The notes under the pieces: generated by a model
The model's database searches: none
What the model was told of the DNA's origin: nothing
Seen by the model: the letters and a program-made list of their open reading frames with translations, nothing else
Shown here: in pieces, positions 24,559 to 39,485 of the stretch
How the letters are laid out: each line of letters starts with the position of its first letter
How positions within the stretch are numbered: position 1 is the first letter of the stretch
Position numbers and translations under genes: made by a program
From: a virus
Lineage: Duplodnaviria > Caudoviricetes
IMG/VR virus record: IMGVR_UViG_3300013121_000023
Location: 96,001-160,000 of that record
Length of the DNA: 64,000 bases
Direction: 5' to 3' (one strand)

Positions 24559-24645
24559 CATATTTGTAATAGATAGTATTTGCGAAGAGAGGTTTATTCT
24601 CTCTTCTTTAGATATTCTGTAATAAGAGATTTGGAGGTAGGTACC

Positions 24646-25776
24646 ATGGGTTCTTTTGATTTCACCTGTGCTATTTCACGTATGCCGATTAGCTATGAGC
24701 AGCGAGCTATCTTGCTACTATTGGCAGGTAATGAGAGTGTCAGTAACAAAGGTTGTTCACCTAATGACTGGTGGTTCCCTTGGTCATTTCCAGTGTGTGC
24801 TACGTATAAAGATTATGGCAGGTTTGTACCTGTGTCGTGCCATGACGTATGGGAGAAAGTTCTACAGAAATATGTTGTGGTGAAGGAAGTAGGAGAAAAC
24901 GAGTATCACGATGTACCCACACACAGGAATATGAAATTCGAAGATATAATAGAAGCATGTCTAGAAGATAGACTGGAAATAACAGATAATGCAGGCGTAG
25001 TTTACCAAAACGCGCTTGAACTAAACGATGAAGCCAGTACGTATATACCAACAGTAAATAAAATACGTCGCATCATAAGTGGTATAATGAAAAAAGACGC
25101 AAATGATTTCTTGATAAGAAGGATAGGTAGAGGCGTTATTAACGTAAGCACCCGCATAGGCTCAACCATAAAAGCTAATAAGTTCTTTTCCGCTATGTGT
25201 AAATTCATAAACAGTAGAGCGACCTTCACATCTATAGTGACACCTGGTAAATACGAAGTCACTCTAACTATTTACGCAAAGCCTGGTAACTTTCATATGA
25301 ATCCCGACGAGTCTATGGCTGGTGAACCACCGACCAAAATGCCAATGGCTTTCATGGCTATAAGAGGCGATGTTTGGGATTATCTGAGTTCTACTAACTA
25401 TACTGGTTTGACGAAAAAGAAAATACAGGCAGACATAACACGACTGAGAAAGTTCGTGGATTCGTATAAGAACGAGCCGGAAAGTATGAGATACCACCTG
25501 TGTAAACTTGATATGTCAATTGAGTCACGCATATTTATAGATGGTGTTCTTGGACCTATGAGGTGTGATAGGTCACCGCATCTGTTGGTGGGCAGTAGCG
25601 AGAAAGAAGAGTTCTGGCGACTGGTACGTGCTTTCGCTACGGCTATGCCGGCTATACACAGACTCAGACACATGCTCGTGCCGTCCACGTCAGTTGGGTG
25701 GCAGGTGGATTATGGGGAGGCGCACGTTCGCGCCTATAAAGCGTTTGCTCAGATGGCTGGAAAAGGGAACAAATTA
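24646..25776 (+). CDS. hypothetical phage protein ending at TTA
   Basis: GGAGG SD; MGSFDFTCAISRMPI..YKDYGRF; TTA overlaps next ATG (TTATGA). Confidence 0.7.
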
Positions 25777-27393: not shown

Positions 27394-27406
27394 GAAAGAT
27401 TGTTTG

Positions 27407-27479
27407 TAGGACGCCCGGGACTTGAACCCGGAACCTGCGGATTAAAAGTCCGCTGCTCTACCTATTGAGCTAGCGACCC
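27407..27479 (-). tRNA. tRNA-Lys(UUU)
   Basis: cloverleaf; GCGGA-CTTTTAA-TCCGC; GGTTCAAGTCC T loop. Confidence 0.9.
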
Positions 27480-27490
27480 GAAGGAGAACC

Positions 27491-27787
27491 ATGACAACAG
27501 CAGCGCGCATGAGGGATTTGGTGGGCGAATATACCAAAAAAGTCATTAGTGAAAATGAGGAACATATAAATGAAAACTTGCTACCGATATTCCTTAAAGA
27601 CTTGTATTCTTGCATAGAATCAGCTGCATCTAAGGGACAGCGCACATACCAACATGCTATAAATCTTACAACCTTGAAGGTGCTGCATTTGGTTGTTCCA
27701 CAATTGAGAGATCGAGGTTATTTGGTAGAGTATATTACTAGTAGTACTACACAGCATCTTATGTACATGAACGTATCTTGGTCATTA
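27491..27787 (+). CDS. hypothetical protein ending at TTA
   Basis: AAGGAG SD; ...NVSWS then TTA 27785-27787 before the shared terminator. Confidence 0.6.
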
Positions 27788-27791
27788 CTTG

Positions 27792-27827
27792 GTAGCTAAA
27801 AAAGAAGAGAGCGAAAGCTCTCTTCTT
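27792..27827. terminator. bidirectional terminator
   Basis: AAAGAAGAGAGC-GAAA-GCTCTCTTCTTT between convergent genes. Confidence 0.8.
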
Positions 27828-28205
27828 TAAATACTTGAATCTATGCGCCTCAATGTATGAGGCCATTACCTCTGCAATGTAGTCGGGGGCAATTCCCCGA
27901 AGTGCATTGCGACTGAGCACTTTTGCGGTACCCTTCCCCCACGGTACCTTCACTGCCTCAATATATGGTTTGCCCTCCCCTTCTGGATGGCGCATTGTTA
28001 GCAAGTGTCTCGCTGCCTGCATCAGCAGGGAGCTTACCTCCTTCGGCTCCTCCAGCCAAAGGATGTGGATTACTGGGTGGTTCAGCACCACCCTCAATTG
28101 CTTTATGGTTTCTTCATTTGCAATATCAGTGTACCTAGTGCCCTCATGTACGAATGTCCTAATGTCCAACAGGGCCTTCCGAAGGCCCTCTATGTTTTCG
28201 TACAT
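27828..28205 (-). CDS. hypothetical protein (APEY family) ending at TTA
   Basis: AGGAGG SD; LNHPVIHILW..IAPDYI; TTA 27830-27828 abuts the terminator. Confidence 0.65.
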
Positions 28206-28318
28206 AGTACCTCCTTTCATATATCTTATGCCATTTTTACGAATAAATTAAGGTACACATAAGTAATAATCGAGGGGCTAAAGAAATGGAAGGATAGCTC
28301 CATCTCTAATAAGTGTTG

Positions 28319-28390
28319 TGCCCCAGAGAGGAATCGAACCTCCTTTAGCCTCCTTGTAAGGGAGGTGCCGGACCAGCTGGCTCCTGGGGC
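28319..28390 (-). tRNA. tRNA-Val(UAC), non-canonical D arm
   Basis: GCCCCAG/CTGGGGC acceptor; CCTCC-CTTACAA-GGAGG; GGTTCGATTCC. Confidence 0.8.
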
Positions 28391-28395
28391 AACTG

Positions 28396-28686
28396 TAACT
28401 TAGATATATCCAAAGAAAGGGAAATCAGCATACCAATGAATTGGTCTCTTCCTTTTTCTACTTCTGTTATGAATTCCGAAACCAATTTGGTTTCGGTCGT
28501 GCCATTTGACTCTATTGTCATGTTCATGTTATGAAAACATGACGATGCTGAATCTGGCCATATTGTGTGTGATACTTTATTAAACCGTTTGTGGAATAGA
28601 TGCCACGCATCTCTAAAGCAGTCTGTTACATAGACCATAACCACCAGTTCTTTTCTTTCTGTGTCCTTTATGAAGTAAACGTTCAT
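28396..28686 (-). CDS. hypothetical protein ending at TTA
   Basis: TTA 28398-28396 ends the ORF 5 nt before tRNA-Val instead of running through it. Confidence 0.6.
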
Positions 28687-28722
28687 TCTTCATTCCTTTC
28701 ATTTTTACTCATATAGTAACAG

Positions 28723-28796
28723 TGGGACCACTCGGATTCGAACCGAGAACATCCCGGTTATGAGCCGGGGGCTCTGACCGATTGAGCTATAGTCCC
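28723..28796 (-). tRNA. tRNA-CAU (Ile2-like or elongator Met)
   Basis: CCCGG-CTCATAA-CCGGG; paired G1-C72 so not initiator. Confidence 0.85.
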
Positions 28797-28875
28797 AAAC
28801 AAGCCGTTTTTAAATAAACGGCAAGGATTTATTGCATGACGTGGCCTCAGCCCGCCTTATCTATGCAATACATCG

Positions 28876-28947
28876 AGCCCACTATGGGATTTGAACCCAT
28901 GACCTACGGTTTACAAAACCGTTGCTCTACCACTGAGCTATGTGGGC
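28876..28947 (-). tRNA. tRNA-Thr(UGU)
   Basis: ACGGT-TTTGTAA-ACCGT. Confidence 0.9.
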
Positions 28948-28950
28948 AGG

Positions 28951-29060
28951 AGCGACAGGCCCGAGTCGAACGGGCGACCAACGGAAAACCGCTGCTCTAC
29001 GGGGCCATCACCAGACAGAACGTTACTTGTCTGGCTTGTGACCTACTGAGCTACTGTCGC
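28951..29060 (-). ncRNA. tRNA-like RNA with D-loop insertion and no anticodon loop
   Basis: GCGACAG/CTGTCGC acceptor, intact T arm, ~45-nt hairpin in D loop, anticodon arm reduced to GCGG-TTTT-CCGT. Confidence 0.7.
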
Positions 29061-29083
29061 AAAAAAGGCTTATATAGCCTTTG

Positions 29084-29155
29084 TGGATCGTCTAGGAATT
29101 GAACCTAGGCACAGCGCTTATAAGACGCCGCAGGGCAACCAGCCCGTCACGATCC
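29084..29155 (-). tRNA. tRNA-Ile(UAU), non-canonical D arm
   Basis: GGATCGT/ACGATCC; GGCGT-CTTATAA-GCGCT; GGTTCAATTCC. Confidence 0.8.
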
Positions 29156-29234
29156 ATAAGAGGTACACCGGAGACCCGATGAAGCCTTCCGCCAGCATGG
29201 TAGGAAGAAGGAGTGTCACCACGATGTACCTCGG

Positions 29235-29306
29235 CATCCCTGACAGGATTTGAACCTGTGACCCGGAGATTAGAAATCTCCTGCTCTTCCGCTGAGCTAC
29301 AGGGAC
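29235..29306 (-). tRNA. tRNA-Arg(UCU)
   Basis: GGAGA-TTTCTAA-TCTCC. Confidence 0.9.
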
Positions 29307-29544
29307 ATCTACGCCTTCACTCATATTTCTTATTGCGCTATTTATTTGATTTTTTCTTACGGTAGCTAAAAATAGATAGGGTTTGCTGATATAGGAGTAA
29401 GTTGGCCCGCCGTCATGATCGCCGTTATACCGGATGGAGTCTGGAGTACAGCTACTATCAACCGGGCCGAGAAGATAGATTTACAACGAACTGGTGTGGT
29501 TCGTATGACTAACGGTCTTTCGGGGCGCCTCATCAAGACCGCTG

Positions 29545-29623
29545 TGCTCTTGGCAGGAGTCGAACCTGCAAATAATAAAGCCGCTTTTGAAACGGCCGCG
29601 TCTGCCTATTTCGCCACAAGAGC
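29545..29623 (-). tRNA. tRNA-Leu(CAA), short variable region
   Basis: GCCGT-TTCAAAA-GCGGC; Leu-type GGCGAAATAGGCAGACGC D arm. Confidence 0.85.
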
Positions 29624-29682
29624 TTTGGCCGTCACCCCCCACACCAACTACTAGAGCTGTGTGGGGGGGGGGTTTCGTAGGT

Positions 29683-29781
29683 AGACCCCGAGTTAGAAAG
29701 CCGTTCTGCATCTTCAGTATTCGGCGAAGAAAAAGAGAGTTGCACTCTTTTCGGGCGTGTATGGCTTTCTTGGTGGGGTCT
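29683..29781 (-). ncRNA. Y RNA-like element 2 (T-arm containing)
   Basis: terminal stem AGACCCC/GGGGTCT and AGAAAGCC/GGCTTTCT; internal AAGAG-TGCAACT-CTCTT; shares motifs with 29871-30016. Confidence 0.5.
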
Positions 29782-29865
29782 TGGAAAGCGAAGAGGAATT
29801 GAACCTCTTATCTCCATTTCGGTAGTTGGCCTAGATGGATGGTTTTTGCCTTTAACCTACGCTTC
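29782..29865 (-). ncRNA. tRNA-like RNA with 17-nt anticodon loop
   Basis: D stem GGTT/AACC; TCCAT-(17 nt)-ATGGA; AGAGG-TTCAATT-CCTCT; ends CCA. Confidence 0.6.
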
Positions 29866-29870
29866 ATAAT

Positions 29871-30016
29871 GAGACCCGAGTTACTGCACCATTGTCCTTG
29901 TTAGGACTGGTTTTGGTTACCAGTTGCCGACCACCGGCACCTACCCCTTATACGGGGTAGCTAGGATTCGAACCTAGTTTTTGGGGTTGCGTGTAGGATG
30001 CAGTTGTTTGGGTCTC
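29871..30016 (-). ncRNA. circularly permuted tRNA-like RNA inside a long closing stem (Y RNA-like)
   Basis: order T arm, closed acceptor hairpin, D arm, anticodon arm; ends paired GAGACCC/GGGTCTC and ACTGCA/TGCAGT. Confidence 0.7.
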
Positions 30017-30018
30017 GG

Positions 30019-30100
30019 TGCTGAGAGAGGGACTCGAACCCTCACGGTTTTACCCGCCGGTACCTAAAACCGGGGCGTCTACCTATTCCGCCACCTCAGC
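30019..30100 (-). tRNA. tRNA-Leu(UAG)
   Basis: CCGGT-TTTAGGT-ACCGG; long variable arm. Confidence 0.9.
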
Positions 30101-30174
30101 AAGAAAGGGTGTAAGTAACGTGTGTAGGGACGAACGGCGAAGAACATCCAAGTACTCACGTTAAGCACACCCTG

Positions 30175-30253
30175 TGGGGTAGATAGGGATCGCACCTATC
30201 AGCTCTGGGCAGCGGTTTTACAGACCGCCTGAAGCACTAGCTTCGTCTACCCC
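30175..30253 (-). tRNA. tRNA-Tyr(GUA), atypical D and T loops
   Basis: GGGGTAG/CTACCCC; GCGGT-CTGTAAA-ACCGC; T loop TGCGATC. Confidence 0.75.
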
Positions 30254-30350
30254 TGGCGCGCTGGCTTTCATAGAACGTTGCTGTACAGCAGCTACAGCTA
30301 ACTACGAGCAGAGTCGTAACACTCTGACTCAAGCCGCGCAATCATTTTTA

Positions 30351-39394: not shown

Positions 39395-39413
39395 CTTTTT
39401 AGCGTTTCGTTAG

Positions 39414-39485
39414 CGCGGGTAACGGGACTTGAACCCGTACATAAGGATTTAGAATCCTATGCTCTACCAGTTGAGCTATACCCAC
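39414..39485 (-). tRNA. amber suppressor tRNA (anticodon CUA)
   Basis: GTGGGTA/TACCCGC; TAGCTCAACTGGTAGAGCA; TAGGA-TTCTAAA-TCCTT; GGTTCAAGTCC. Confidence 0.85.

Follow-up and report, generated by a model that had tools for sequence, protein, structure and literature searches.

YrlA RNAs, a tRNA-like group of bacterial Y RNAs, are understood as tRNA-elbow mimics linked to the protein Ro60. Their defining features are a GNCGAA motif close to the 5' end, stem-loops of the T, acceptor-like and D type, and a Ro60 gene that lies on the same strand no more than about 4 kb away (PMC4201824). According to Wang et al. 2018 (bioRxiv 10.1101/312249), YrlA RNAs have a conserved UA kink and lack an anticodon loop, since the Ro-binding stem is a continuation of their anticodon stem; an origin from a dimeric tRNA precursor has been proposed (bioRxiv 10.1101/312249). 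Genes for permuted tRNAs, the other system that comes close, have been reported from only six algae and one archaeon (PMC3978253). Here we describe a 146-base RNA gene, hereafter the element, on the minus strand at positions 30016-29871 of a 64,000-nucleotide stretch of phage DNA. This stretch, the window, corresponds to bases 96001-160000 of an IMG/VR phage genome (IMGVR_UViG_3300013121_000023) that is complete, carries terminal repeats and measures 177,132 bp; the element lies inside a phage tRNA cluster. All parts of a tRNA cloverleaf are present in its RNA, arranged in rotated order; a loop seals the acceptor end, and the chain is open between a small variable hairpin and the T arm. With moderate confidence, we regard the element as a gene for a stable, non-decoding tRNA mimic from a family that is akin to the YrlA-type Y RNAs and apparently uncatalogued. 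The family appears to be a variant of the YrlA design in which the anticodon arm has been retained.

Structurally, the element consists of a tRNA body mounted on a handle of two tiers, namely 7 bp, a 5×5 internal loop and 8 bp. The handle is joined to the body by a 19-nt single strand starting with CUACACGC on the 5' side and by AAU on the 3' side. RNAfold recovered this fold without constraints, at a minimum free energy of -59.8 kcal/mol compared with -37.0 ± 4.2 kcal/mol for shuffled sequences (z -5.42), and none of 200 shuffles equalled it. Pair probabilities reach 0.75-1.0 in both stems of the handle and in the T arm, the acceptor hairpin and the D arm. They are lower for the two outermost pairs of the anticodon-like arm, in which 4 to 6 pairs are possible and which competes with the variable hairpin. 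An initial annotation, made from the sequence alone, had named a closing stem and the T, acceptor, D and anticodon arms, all of which lie where it placed them on the minus strand; the 8-bp inner stem, the 5×5 internal loop and the small hairpin at 29907-29894 are additions to that description. The acceptor stem is, as the annotation had also observed, identical to that of the phage tRNA-Tyr (30253-30174).

Relatives were sought among pattern-selected loci of viral contigs and Myxococcota genomes, using one covariance model built from the element alone (R1) and a second built from the element together with the members at L167 and L161 (R2). The scan that succeeded asked for TACACGC followed by a T loop within 5-35 nt, and a second scan added a leading C and left out tRNA-Val(UAC). 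R1 matched two loci end to end, L167:3644-3780 (46 bits, E 9e-10) and L161:5591-5734 (40.5 bits, E 2.5e-8). Aligned with the element, these sequences left 97% of cells paired, with changes on both sides in 26 of 39 pairs. R2 retrieved 23 full-length members at E ≤ 1e-7 from phage contigs and Myxococcota genomes. The viral members include those at L355, L330, L274 (two), L322 (three in tandem), L352 (two), L188, L196, L311 and L272, and the bacterial ones come from Polyangiaceae, Archangium, Corallococcus and Myxococcaceae genomes. In the 23-sequence alignment, fitted to the structure of the model, pairing extends to 94.6% of cells, and double changes occur in 34 of 36 pairs. Shuffles give a covariation score of 0.223, compared with 0.865 for the alignment itself; none of 500 shuffles reaches the latter value, and sliding the partners by 1-3 columns lowers pairing to 35-45%. 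All six helices covary, including the anticodon-like arm (5/5 pairs, 95.7% paired), which is present in about 19 of the 23 relatives and carries a different "anticodon" in each. The element itself has the handle layout of the R2 family. Homologues in other phages and in bacteria keep the six helices through compensatory changes, which places the element far beyond chance. Fold and covariation together bear out the proposal of the initial annotation that a permuted tRNA with its anticodon arm kept sends out a long stem between the variable region and the T arm. The parts of the element and its neighbours are listed in Table 1.

Table 1 Parts of the element and adjoining RNA genes, in transcript order (window positions).
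Feature	Position	Strand	Remarks
tRNA-Leu(UAG)	30017..30100	-	immediately upstream; first base of the element directly follows its 3' end
Outer stem, 5' strand GAGACCC	30010..30016	-	from the fold; helix 1, double changes in 7/7 pairs of the family
Internal loop, 5' side AAACA	30005..30009	-	AACA, GGCC-G or AUCC in relatives
Inner stem, 5' strand ACUGCAUC (8 bp)	29997..30004	-	helix 2, double changes in 8/8 pairs
Single-stranded handle motif CUACACGC	29989..29996	-	conserved; followed by an A/C-rich linker to 29978
T arm CUAGG-UUCGAAU-CCUAG	29961..29977	-	canonical loop UUCGAAU; helix 3, 100% paired in the family
Sealed acceptor hairpin CUACCCC-GUAUAA-GGGGUAG	29941..29960	-	3' strand, loop G-UAUAA, 5' strand; 7 bp; helix 4, 7/7 pairs covary
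D arm GCCG-GUGGU-CGGC	29926..29938	-	GG present, 5-nt loop; helix 5 covaries; GU ahead of the arm at positions 8-9
Anticodon-like arm ACUGGU-AACCAAA-ACCAGU	29906..29924	-	7-nt loop, central CCA, A33; helix 6
Small hairpin GUCC-UAACAA-GGAC	29894..29907	-	at the place of a class II variable arm, then AAU; 2 nt in common with the alternative 6-bp anticodon stem
Inner stem, 3' strand GGUGCAGU	29883..29890	-	helix 2
3' internal-loop motif AACUC	29878..29882	-	conserved; family consensus (C)ACUC, then GGG
Outer stem, 3' strand GGGUCUC	29871..29877	-	helix 1
tRNA-like gene, 17-nt anticodon loop, encoded CCA	29783..29865	-	downstream; begins 5 nt after the element
Sibling RNA B, handle AGACCC..CAA, inner stem, AUACACGC ... 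UAACUCGGGGUCU	29683..29781	-	two-hairpin cargo, not tRNA; z -3.8

Across the family, the handle follows the order outer stem, loop, inner stem, (C/U)UACA(C/A)GC, cargo, inner stem, (C)ACUC, outer stem. The outer stem, about 7 bp long, mostly has CC(C) at its end and is followed by AACA, AAACA or GGCC-G and an inner stem of about 8 bp, and on the return side the inner stem leads into (C)ACUC and GGG. The single-stranded motifs of the handle are conserved while both stems vary in sequence, and CUACACGC is unchanged in most of the 23 relatives, with UUACAAGC, UCACAAGC and UUACAGGA as its variants. A complete permuted tRNA is the commonest cargo. Its acceptor loop can be a stable tetraloop (UUCG, GAAA or GAGA) or, at the other extreme, a loop with ACC or ACCA at its start, which resembles the remnant of a tandem tRNA pair, with discriminator, CCA and spacer. 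Other copies carry the T, acceptor and D arms alone (L146, L311, L435 and L423) or the D and anticodon arms alone (L130). At two further loci (L170:2340-2475, plus strand, and L352:6240-6367, minus strand), the handle surrounds a tRNA body in normal order (D, anticodon and T arms) and occupies the place of its missing acceptor stem. The small hairpin at the variable place is also found in the relative at L188. Within the 177-kb genome the handle occurs twice, in the element and in sibling RNA B. The two have the outer stem, the AACUC loop and AUACACGC in common, while 5 of the 8 inner-stem pairs are altered on both sides. As a whole, the handle acts as a cassette with exchangeable tRNA-derived cargo.

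The RNA was present in 13 of 41 sampled Myxococcaceae genomes, and in a phylum-wide sample of 121 genomes it was found in the query genome only. Carrier myxobacteria have 1-5 copies, dispersed or in tandem; in three Myxococcaceae genomes (G147, G164 and G166) some copies form tandem pairs about 20-80 nt apart. Tandem handle RNAs, three or four per contig, were also observed at L146:3700-4170 (minus strand), L322:2158-2646 (minus strand) and L274:6067-7321 (plus strand), where the copies differ in cargo or in "anticodon" (tgg, att and gat at L322). Matches of the models to the junctions of ordinary tandem tRNAs (L123, L161:3920, L166, L194, L136, L219, L139, L175 and L218) were excluded with ARAGORN, and occurrences of TACACGC with a T loop 11 nt further on were mostly tRNA-Val(UAC) and no handle RNAs. 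The pattern TACACGC-N90-120-TAACTCGGG gave 64 matches in viral contigs, all by chance, and a strict pattern for the 5' part of the handle gave none there. A blastn search against GenBank phages returned the neighbouring tRNA-Leu as the sole match and nothing for the element. A neighbouring protein of 164 amino acids has many relatives and stands in a conserved five-gene block, which adjoins the tRNA cluster of the window. The loci of these relatives show no tRNA cluster or non-coding gap downstream, and R1 found no homologue in them or in four complete related phages. The phage of L352 and L067 (IMGVR_UViG_3300022744_000001, 447,761 bp) has the five-gene block in common with this phage and several family members elsewhere in its genome.

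The cluster around the element comprises nine tRNAs at 27406-30253 according to ARAGORN, in a phage genome of 46% G+C, and no promoter-like or terminator-like site was found flanking the element on its own strand. At least four non-canonical tRNA-like genes occur in the cluster. The gene at 29783-29865 (minus strand) was called tRNA-Arg(acg) by ARAGORN solely when a 10-nt intron was permitted and was not matched by the Rfam tRNA model, and in intron mode ARAGORN reported a "tRNA-His(atg) with 15-nt intron" at 28949-29060 (minus strand). The tRNA-Tyr(gta) at 30174-30253 and the tRNA-Ile(tat) at 29083-29155 (minus strand) are ARAGORN calls that score under the Rfam tRNA gathering score; the tRNA-Tyr has AC at positions 8-9 and a D arm without GG. 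The inter-tRNA spacers at 29635-29670, 30106-30173 and 30254-30345 (minus strand) are closed hairpin RNAs as well. An ACAGCAA at 30284, in the last of these spacers, was rejected as a handle; it sits within the hairpin (z -1.6). Another tRNA with anticodon CUA, of the amber suppressor type and labelled Pyl by ARAGORN, is located at 39413-39485 (minus strand), 9 kb off the main cluster, and hints at recoding of TAG in part of the phage.

The element resembles YrlA in several respects. T arm, closed acceptor hairpin and D arm follow one another in the same rotated order, and the ends pair as a long stem-loop-stem with UA after the middle stem and an ACU-G loop on the 3' side. Occurrence in phage genomes, in the case of YrlA those of mycobacteriophages, is a further point in common, as is an acceptor stem of 7 bp, which makes the element a candidate RNase P substrate. 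In contrast to YrlA, the element keeps a closed anticodon arm and a variable hairpin, and it opens between the variable region and the T arm, whereas YrlA opens in the anticodon stem. Furthermore, its handle lacks the GNCGAAN0-1G (CGAA) motif: the 5' part reads GAGACCCAAACAACUGC, the sole CGAA of the element is that of the T loop, and the motifs of the handle are CUACACGC and (C)ACUC. A search with all Rfam families, at gathering thresholds and at E ≤ 10, yielded no match covering the element, YrlA (RF02553, gathering score 69 bits) included. The initial annotation had named a strong match to this model as a result that would remove the novelty, and none was obtained. The lone YrlA row in the window, at 29477-29593 (15 bits, E 6.4), overlaps a tRNA-Leu and was discarded as noise. 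Among the relatives, L146:3704-3831, which combines the same handle with a T-acceptor-D cargo, scored 45.9 bits against the whole Rfam YrlA model, below the gathering score, with an E-value of 3.9e-9 in a local search and 4.4e-7 in a 59-kb search. This alignment includes both tiers of the handle and places CUAC on CUA and ACUCG on AcUuG, so that the conserved UA kink of YrlA aligns with CUAC. Myxobacterial members matched the YrlA model through the core alone, at 32-38 bits.

These likenesses raise the possibility that the element is an orthodox Y RNA, that is, a divergent YrlA orthologue whose handle would bind a host Ro60/Rsr ring together with an exoribonuclease such as PNPase, as in Deinococcus, Salmonella and phiLo. 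The YrlA-like stem-loop-stem of the handle and the match of the sibling at L146 (E 4e-9) speak for such an assignment, as does the finding that the Ro60 of phage phiLo works with the PNPase of its host (PMC12135203). The genomic setting supports it in part: the Ro60 domain TROVE was found in 2 of 16 carrier phage records (G184 and G006), and in both the RNA belongs to the tRNA cluster and follows the TROVE gene on its strand, about 1.5 kb away in G184 and about 5.6 kb away in G006. The distance of up to about 4 kb from Ro60 that defines YrlA is thus kept in G184 and not in this phage. The TROVE-bearing 323-kb phage of L161 also encodes a transfer-messenger RNA at L161:9321-9698 (plus strand), inside the same cluster, which has 38 tRNAs. 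Against an orthodox Y RNA stand the handle without its CGAA motif and the scarcity of partners. The complete 177-kb genome of this phage encodes no TROVE, DUF2828, DUF7788, RtcB or PolyA_pol (CCA-adding enzyme), although the DUF2828 search did detect the known Felix O1 member used as positive control, and tblastn with Felix O1 ORF42 gave no match. Among six other carrier phage records at least 90% complete, TROVE and DUF2828 were not found in G008, G010, G179, G180 and G181, G184 lacked DUF2828 only, and none of five carrier Myxococcota genomes had TROVE or DUF2828. Ro60, moreover, is present in only about 5% of bacteria (PMC4201824). On balance, we hold this assignment to be unlikely. The initial annotation had offered either a new class of Y RNA or a permuted, two-piece tRNA. 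We prefer the first of these alternatives; for this copy, a functional tRNA in two pieces is less likely. The layout of the handle, the match at L146 and the proximity to TROVE in G184 and G006 agree with the Y RNA label, which is only partly supported because a Y RNA is defined by Ro60 binding and most carriers have no Ro60-like gene.

Phage RNAs from other systems help to place the handle. In Felix O1, four RNAs of the form AGACCNN-NU-ACAGCAA...NNGGUCU lie downstream of ORF42 (DUF2828 and DUF7788), and one of them, at 24580-24704, contains a permuted T-acceptor-D module. Like the element, these are RNAs of a phage tRNA cluster, with a closing stem, two nucleotides and UACAGCAA, and with interchangeable cargo. 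Here the corresponding motif is UACACGCAA, one base longer through an insertion; UUACAAGC and UUACAGGA, variants within the family, form a bridge between both motifs. In the element, the 8-bp inner stem is followed by CU and then by ACACGCAA, one base more than in the Felix O1 type, and an outer tier is added. The Felix O1 RNAs differ in having a single tier of 7 bp, no ACUC loop and a tRNA module without an anticodon arm, and their partner gene ORF42 has no counterpart in this phage. R2 matched Felix O1 through the tRNA core alone (28 bits). Judging by the motifs, a common origin of the two handles is plausible. Species 1 and 2 of phage T4 (rnaC and rnaD) are likewise small stable RNAs that are co-transcribed in, and processed from, a phage tRNA operon, and rnaC has a T arm; they differ from the element in their normal order, in having no handle motifs in common with it and in the absence of a sealed acceptor hairpin. 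The Yrl1 and Yrl2 RNAs of the Thermus phage phiLo, whose Ro60 uses host PNPase, are stem-bulge-stem RNAs proposed to recruit host factors, as the handle might; they differ in their CGAA motif, proven Ro60 binding and lack of a tRNA body (PMC12135203). In the literature, we found no account of CUACACGC or ACAGCAA handle RNAs, of pairs of DUF2828 and RNA, or of permuted tRNA genes in bacteria or phages.

A further alternative takes the permutation at face value. The element would then be a true permuted tRNA gene. RNase P, with trimming at the 3' side, would open the acceptor loop, and the product would receive CCA and translate as tRNA(CCA), either in two pieces held together by the handle, which would stand where a long variable arm does in other tRNAs, or after removal of the handle and ligation. 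Every arm of a tRNA is present and covaries, the acceptor stem has 7 bp with a G discriminator, some acceptor loops of the family start with ACC or ACCA, and ARAGORN found no other tRNA-Trp in the phage. A precedent for such processing exists in the YrlA of M. smegmatis, which has a 7-bp stem and is cut by RNase P and CCA-tailed in vivo (PMC4201824). To assess tRNA-likeness, we un-permuted the sequences in silico by opening the acceptor loop and joining the variable region to the T arm, and submitted the products to ARAGORN. With default thresholds, 17 of the 23 relatives were called as tRNAs, with 11 different anticodons, and the anticodons of the relatives are varied (att, tac, acg, gca, ctt, aat, gaa, tgg, cca, gat, tat and tct). 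The un-permuted element was called tRNA-Trp(cca) at relaxed thresholds (-ps) only, and was missed at default because of a G in place of U8, a D loop of 5 nt and A33 in the loop AACCAAA. The "Trp-like" identity given in the initial annotation is weak, with A33 instead of U33 and a call at relaxed thresholds only. The same three deviations weigh against a translating tRNA, as do several relatives that have anticodons unused by bacteria (AUU and AAU) or no anticodon arm at all, and the stable tetraloops that close many acceptor ends. Moreover, no bulge-helix-bulge motif is present, neither RtcB nor a CCA-adding enzyme is encoded by the phage, and a tRNA would not require a conserved, sequence-specific handle.

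The known permuted tRNA genes are those of unicellular algae and Thermofilum pendens. In these as in the element, the 3' half is encoded first and a short loop links the acceptor ends (PMC3978253); class II tRNAs are over-represented there, and most relatives of the element are canonical once un-permuted. However, the termini of the algal and T. pendens transcripts form a bulge-helix-bulge (3-nt bulges and a 4-bp helix), which is cut by the splicing endonuclease and ligated to a circle. The element has instead a 7-bp/5×5/8-bp handle of conserved sequence, occurs in phages and bacteria without such an endonuclease, and in this copy is called a tRNA at relaxed thresholds only. Together with the restriction of permuted tRNA genes to six algae and one archaeon, these points make it quite unlikely that the element is a translating tRNA. 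We consider it very unlikely that the family as a whole consists of genuine permuted tRNA genes of bacteria and phages, with the handle as a maturation or quality-control signal and with RNase P opening, CCA addition, charging and decoding. If this were true, they would be the first outside algae and archaea and would provide phages with nuclease-resistant spare tRNAs, and this copy would be an unusual tRNA reading UGG.

Finally, a functionless element, be it a decaying side product of tRNA genes duplicated in tandem or a spacer structured for the processing of the tRNA operon, might be expected between tRNA genes, in a cluster with several odd tRNA-like genes and hairpin spacers, and its layout is imitated by tandem tRNA junctions, but we judge this highly improbable given full-length homologues with compensatory changes in unrelated phages and, standing alone, in Myxococcota, conserved single-stranded motifs, and a second handle copy with different cargo.

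We therefore return to the stable, non-decoding tRNA mimic. We postulate that the element is transcribed within the tRNA operon, without a promoter or terminator of its own. Since no such site flanks it, its release would fall to the enzymes that trim its neighbours: 3' processing of tRNA-Leu would give the 5' end, and the RNase P cut at the 5' end of the downstream tRNA-like gene would give the 3' end. The covariation shows pairing of the ends as the two-tier handle of outer stem, ACUC internal loop, inner stem and CUACACGC. The interior forms a complete class-II-style tRNA body in rotated order, its acceptor end closed by a loop and its chain open between the variable and T arms. Such an RNA most likely arose at the junction of two tandem tRNA genes. 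This origin is supported by the cross-matches of the models to tandem tRNA junctions, by the several acceptor loops of ACC or ACCA type and by the stem identical to that of tRNA-Tyr, and it is the one published for YrlA. The RNA is probably non-decoding, because the acceptor end is sealed and because this copy has A33, G8 and a D loop of 5 nt. It may offer tRNA-binding proteins the shape of a tRNA together with one look-alike of an anticodon arm. The handle is hypothesized to give stability and to bind a partner, which would be Ro60 in the minority of phages encoding it and otherwise probably a host factor. The most likely use may be that of a decoy or adaptor in a contest over host tRNAs and tRNA-cleaving defences; such a role would fit the "anticodon" that differs from copy to copy, the closed ends and the placement among the tRNA genes that phages carry.

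Several observations weigh against this reading. The covariation counts rest on an alignment that was fitted to the structure of the model, the phage itself encodes none of the partner proteins that were sought, and the decoy role is one that we infer. BLASTP among three complete carrier phages detected no common protein, and the neighbours of the myxobacterial copies are unrelated (aldehyde dehydrogenase, MutS2, peptidase M4 and IS66). A Polyangiaceae copy (L387) adjoins the IS66 transposase. Most relatives have anticodon loops of the normal CU-NNN-AA form, with A33 in four including this element. The 17 of 23 relatives that are canonical tRNAs once un-permuted, mostly with proper loops, thus exceed what an elbow mimic needs, which leaves some likelihood to a decoding role.

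The family constitutes a second design beside YrlA, in which a whole tRNA body including the anticodon arm is mounted on a conserved handle. Handle RNAs are common in large phages and occur in part of the sampled Myxococcaceae, mostly without a Ro60-like gene, and each copy mimics a different tRNA, which points to a partner independent of Ro60. They offer a testable candidate for tRNA decoys in the conflict between phage and host over tRNA cleavage. They also reopen the question of Wang et al. 2018 whether permuted tRNA-like transcripts can give rise to functional tRNAs through maturation in bacteria and, as Myxococcus is genetically tractable, the family can be studied directly.

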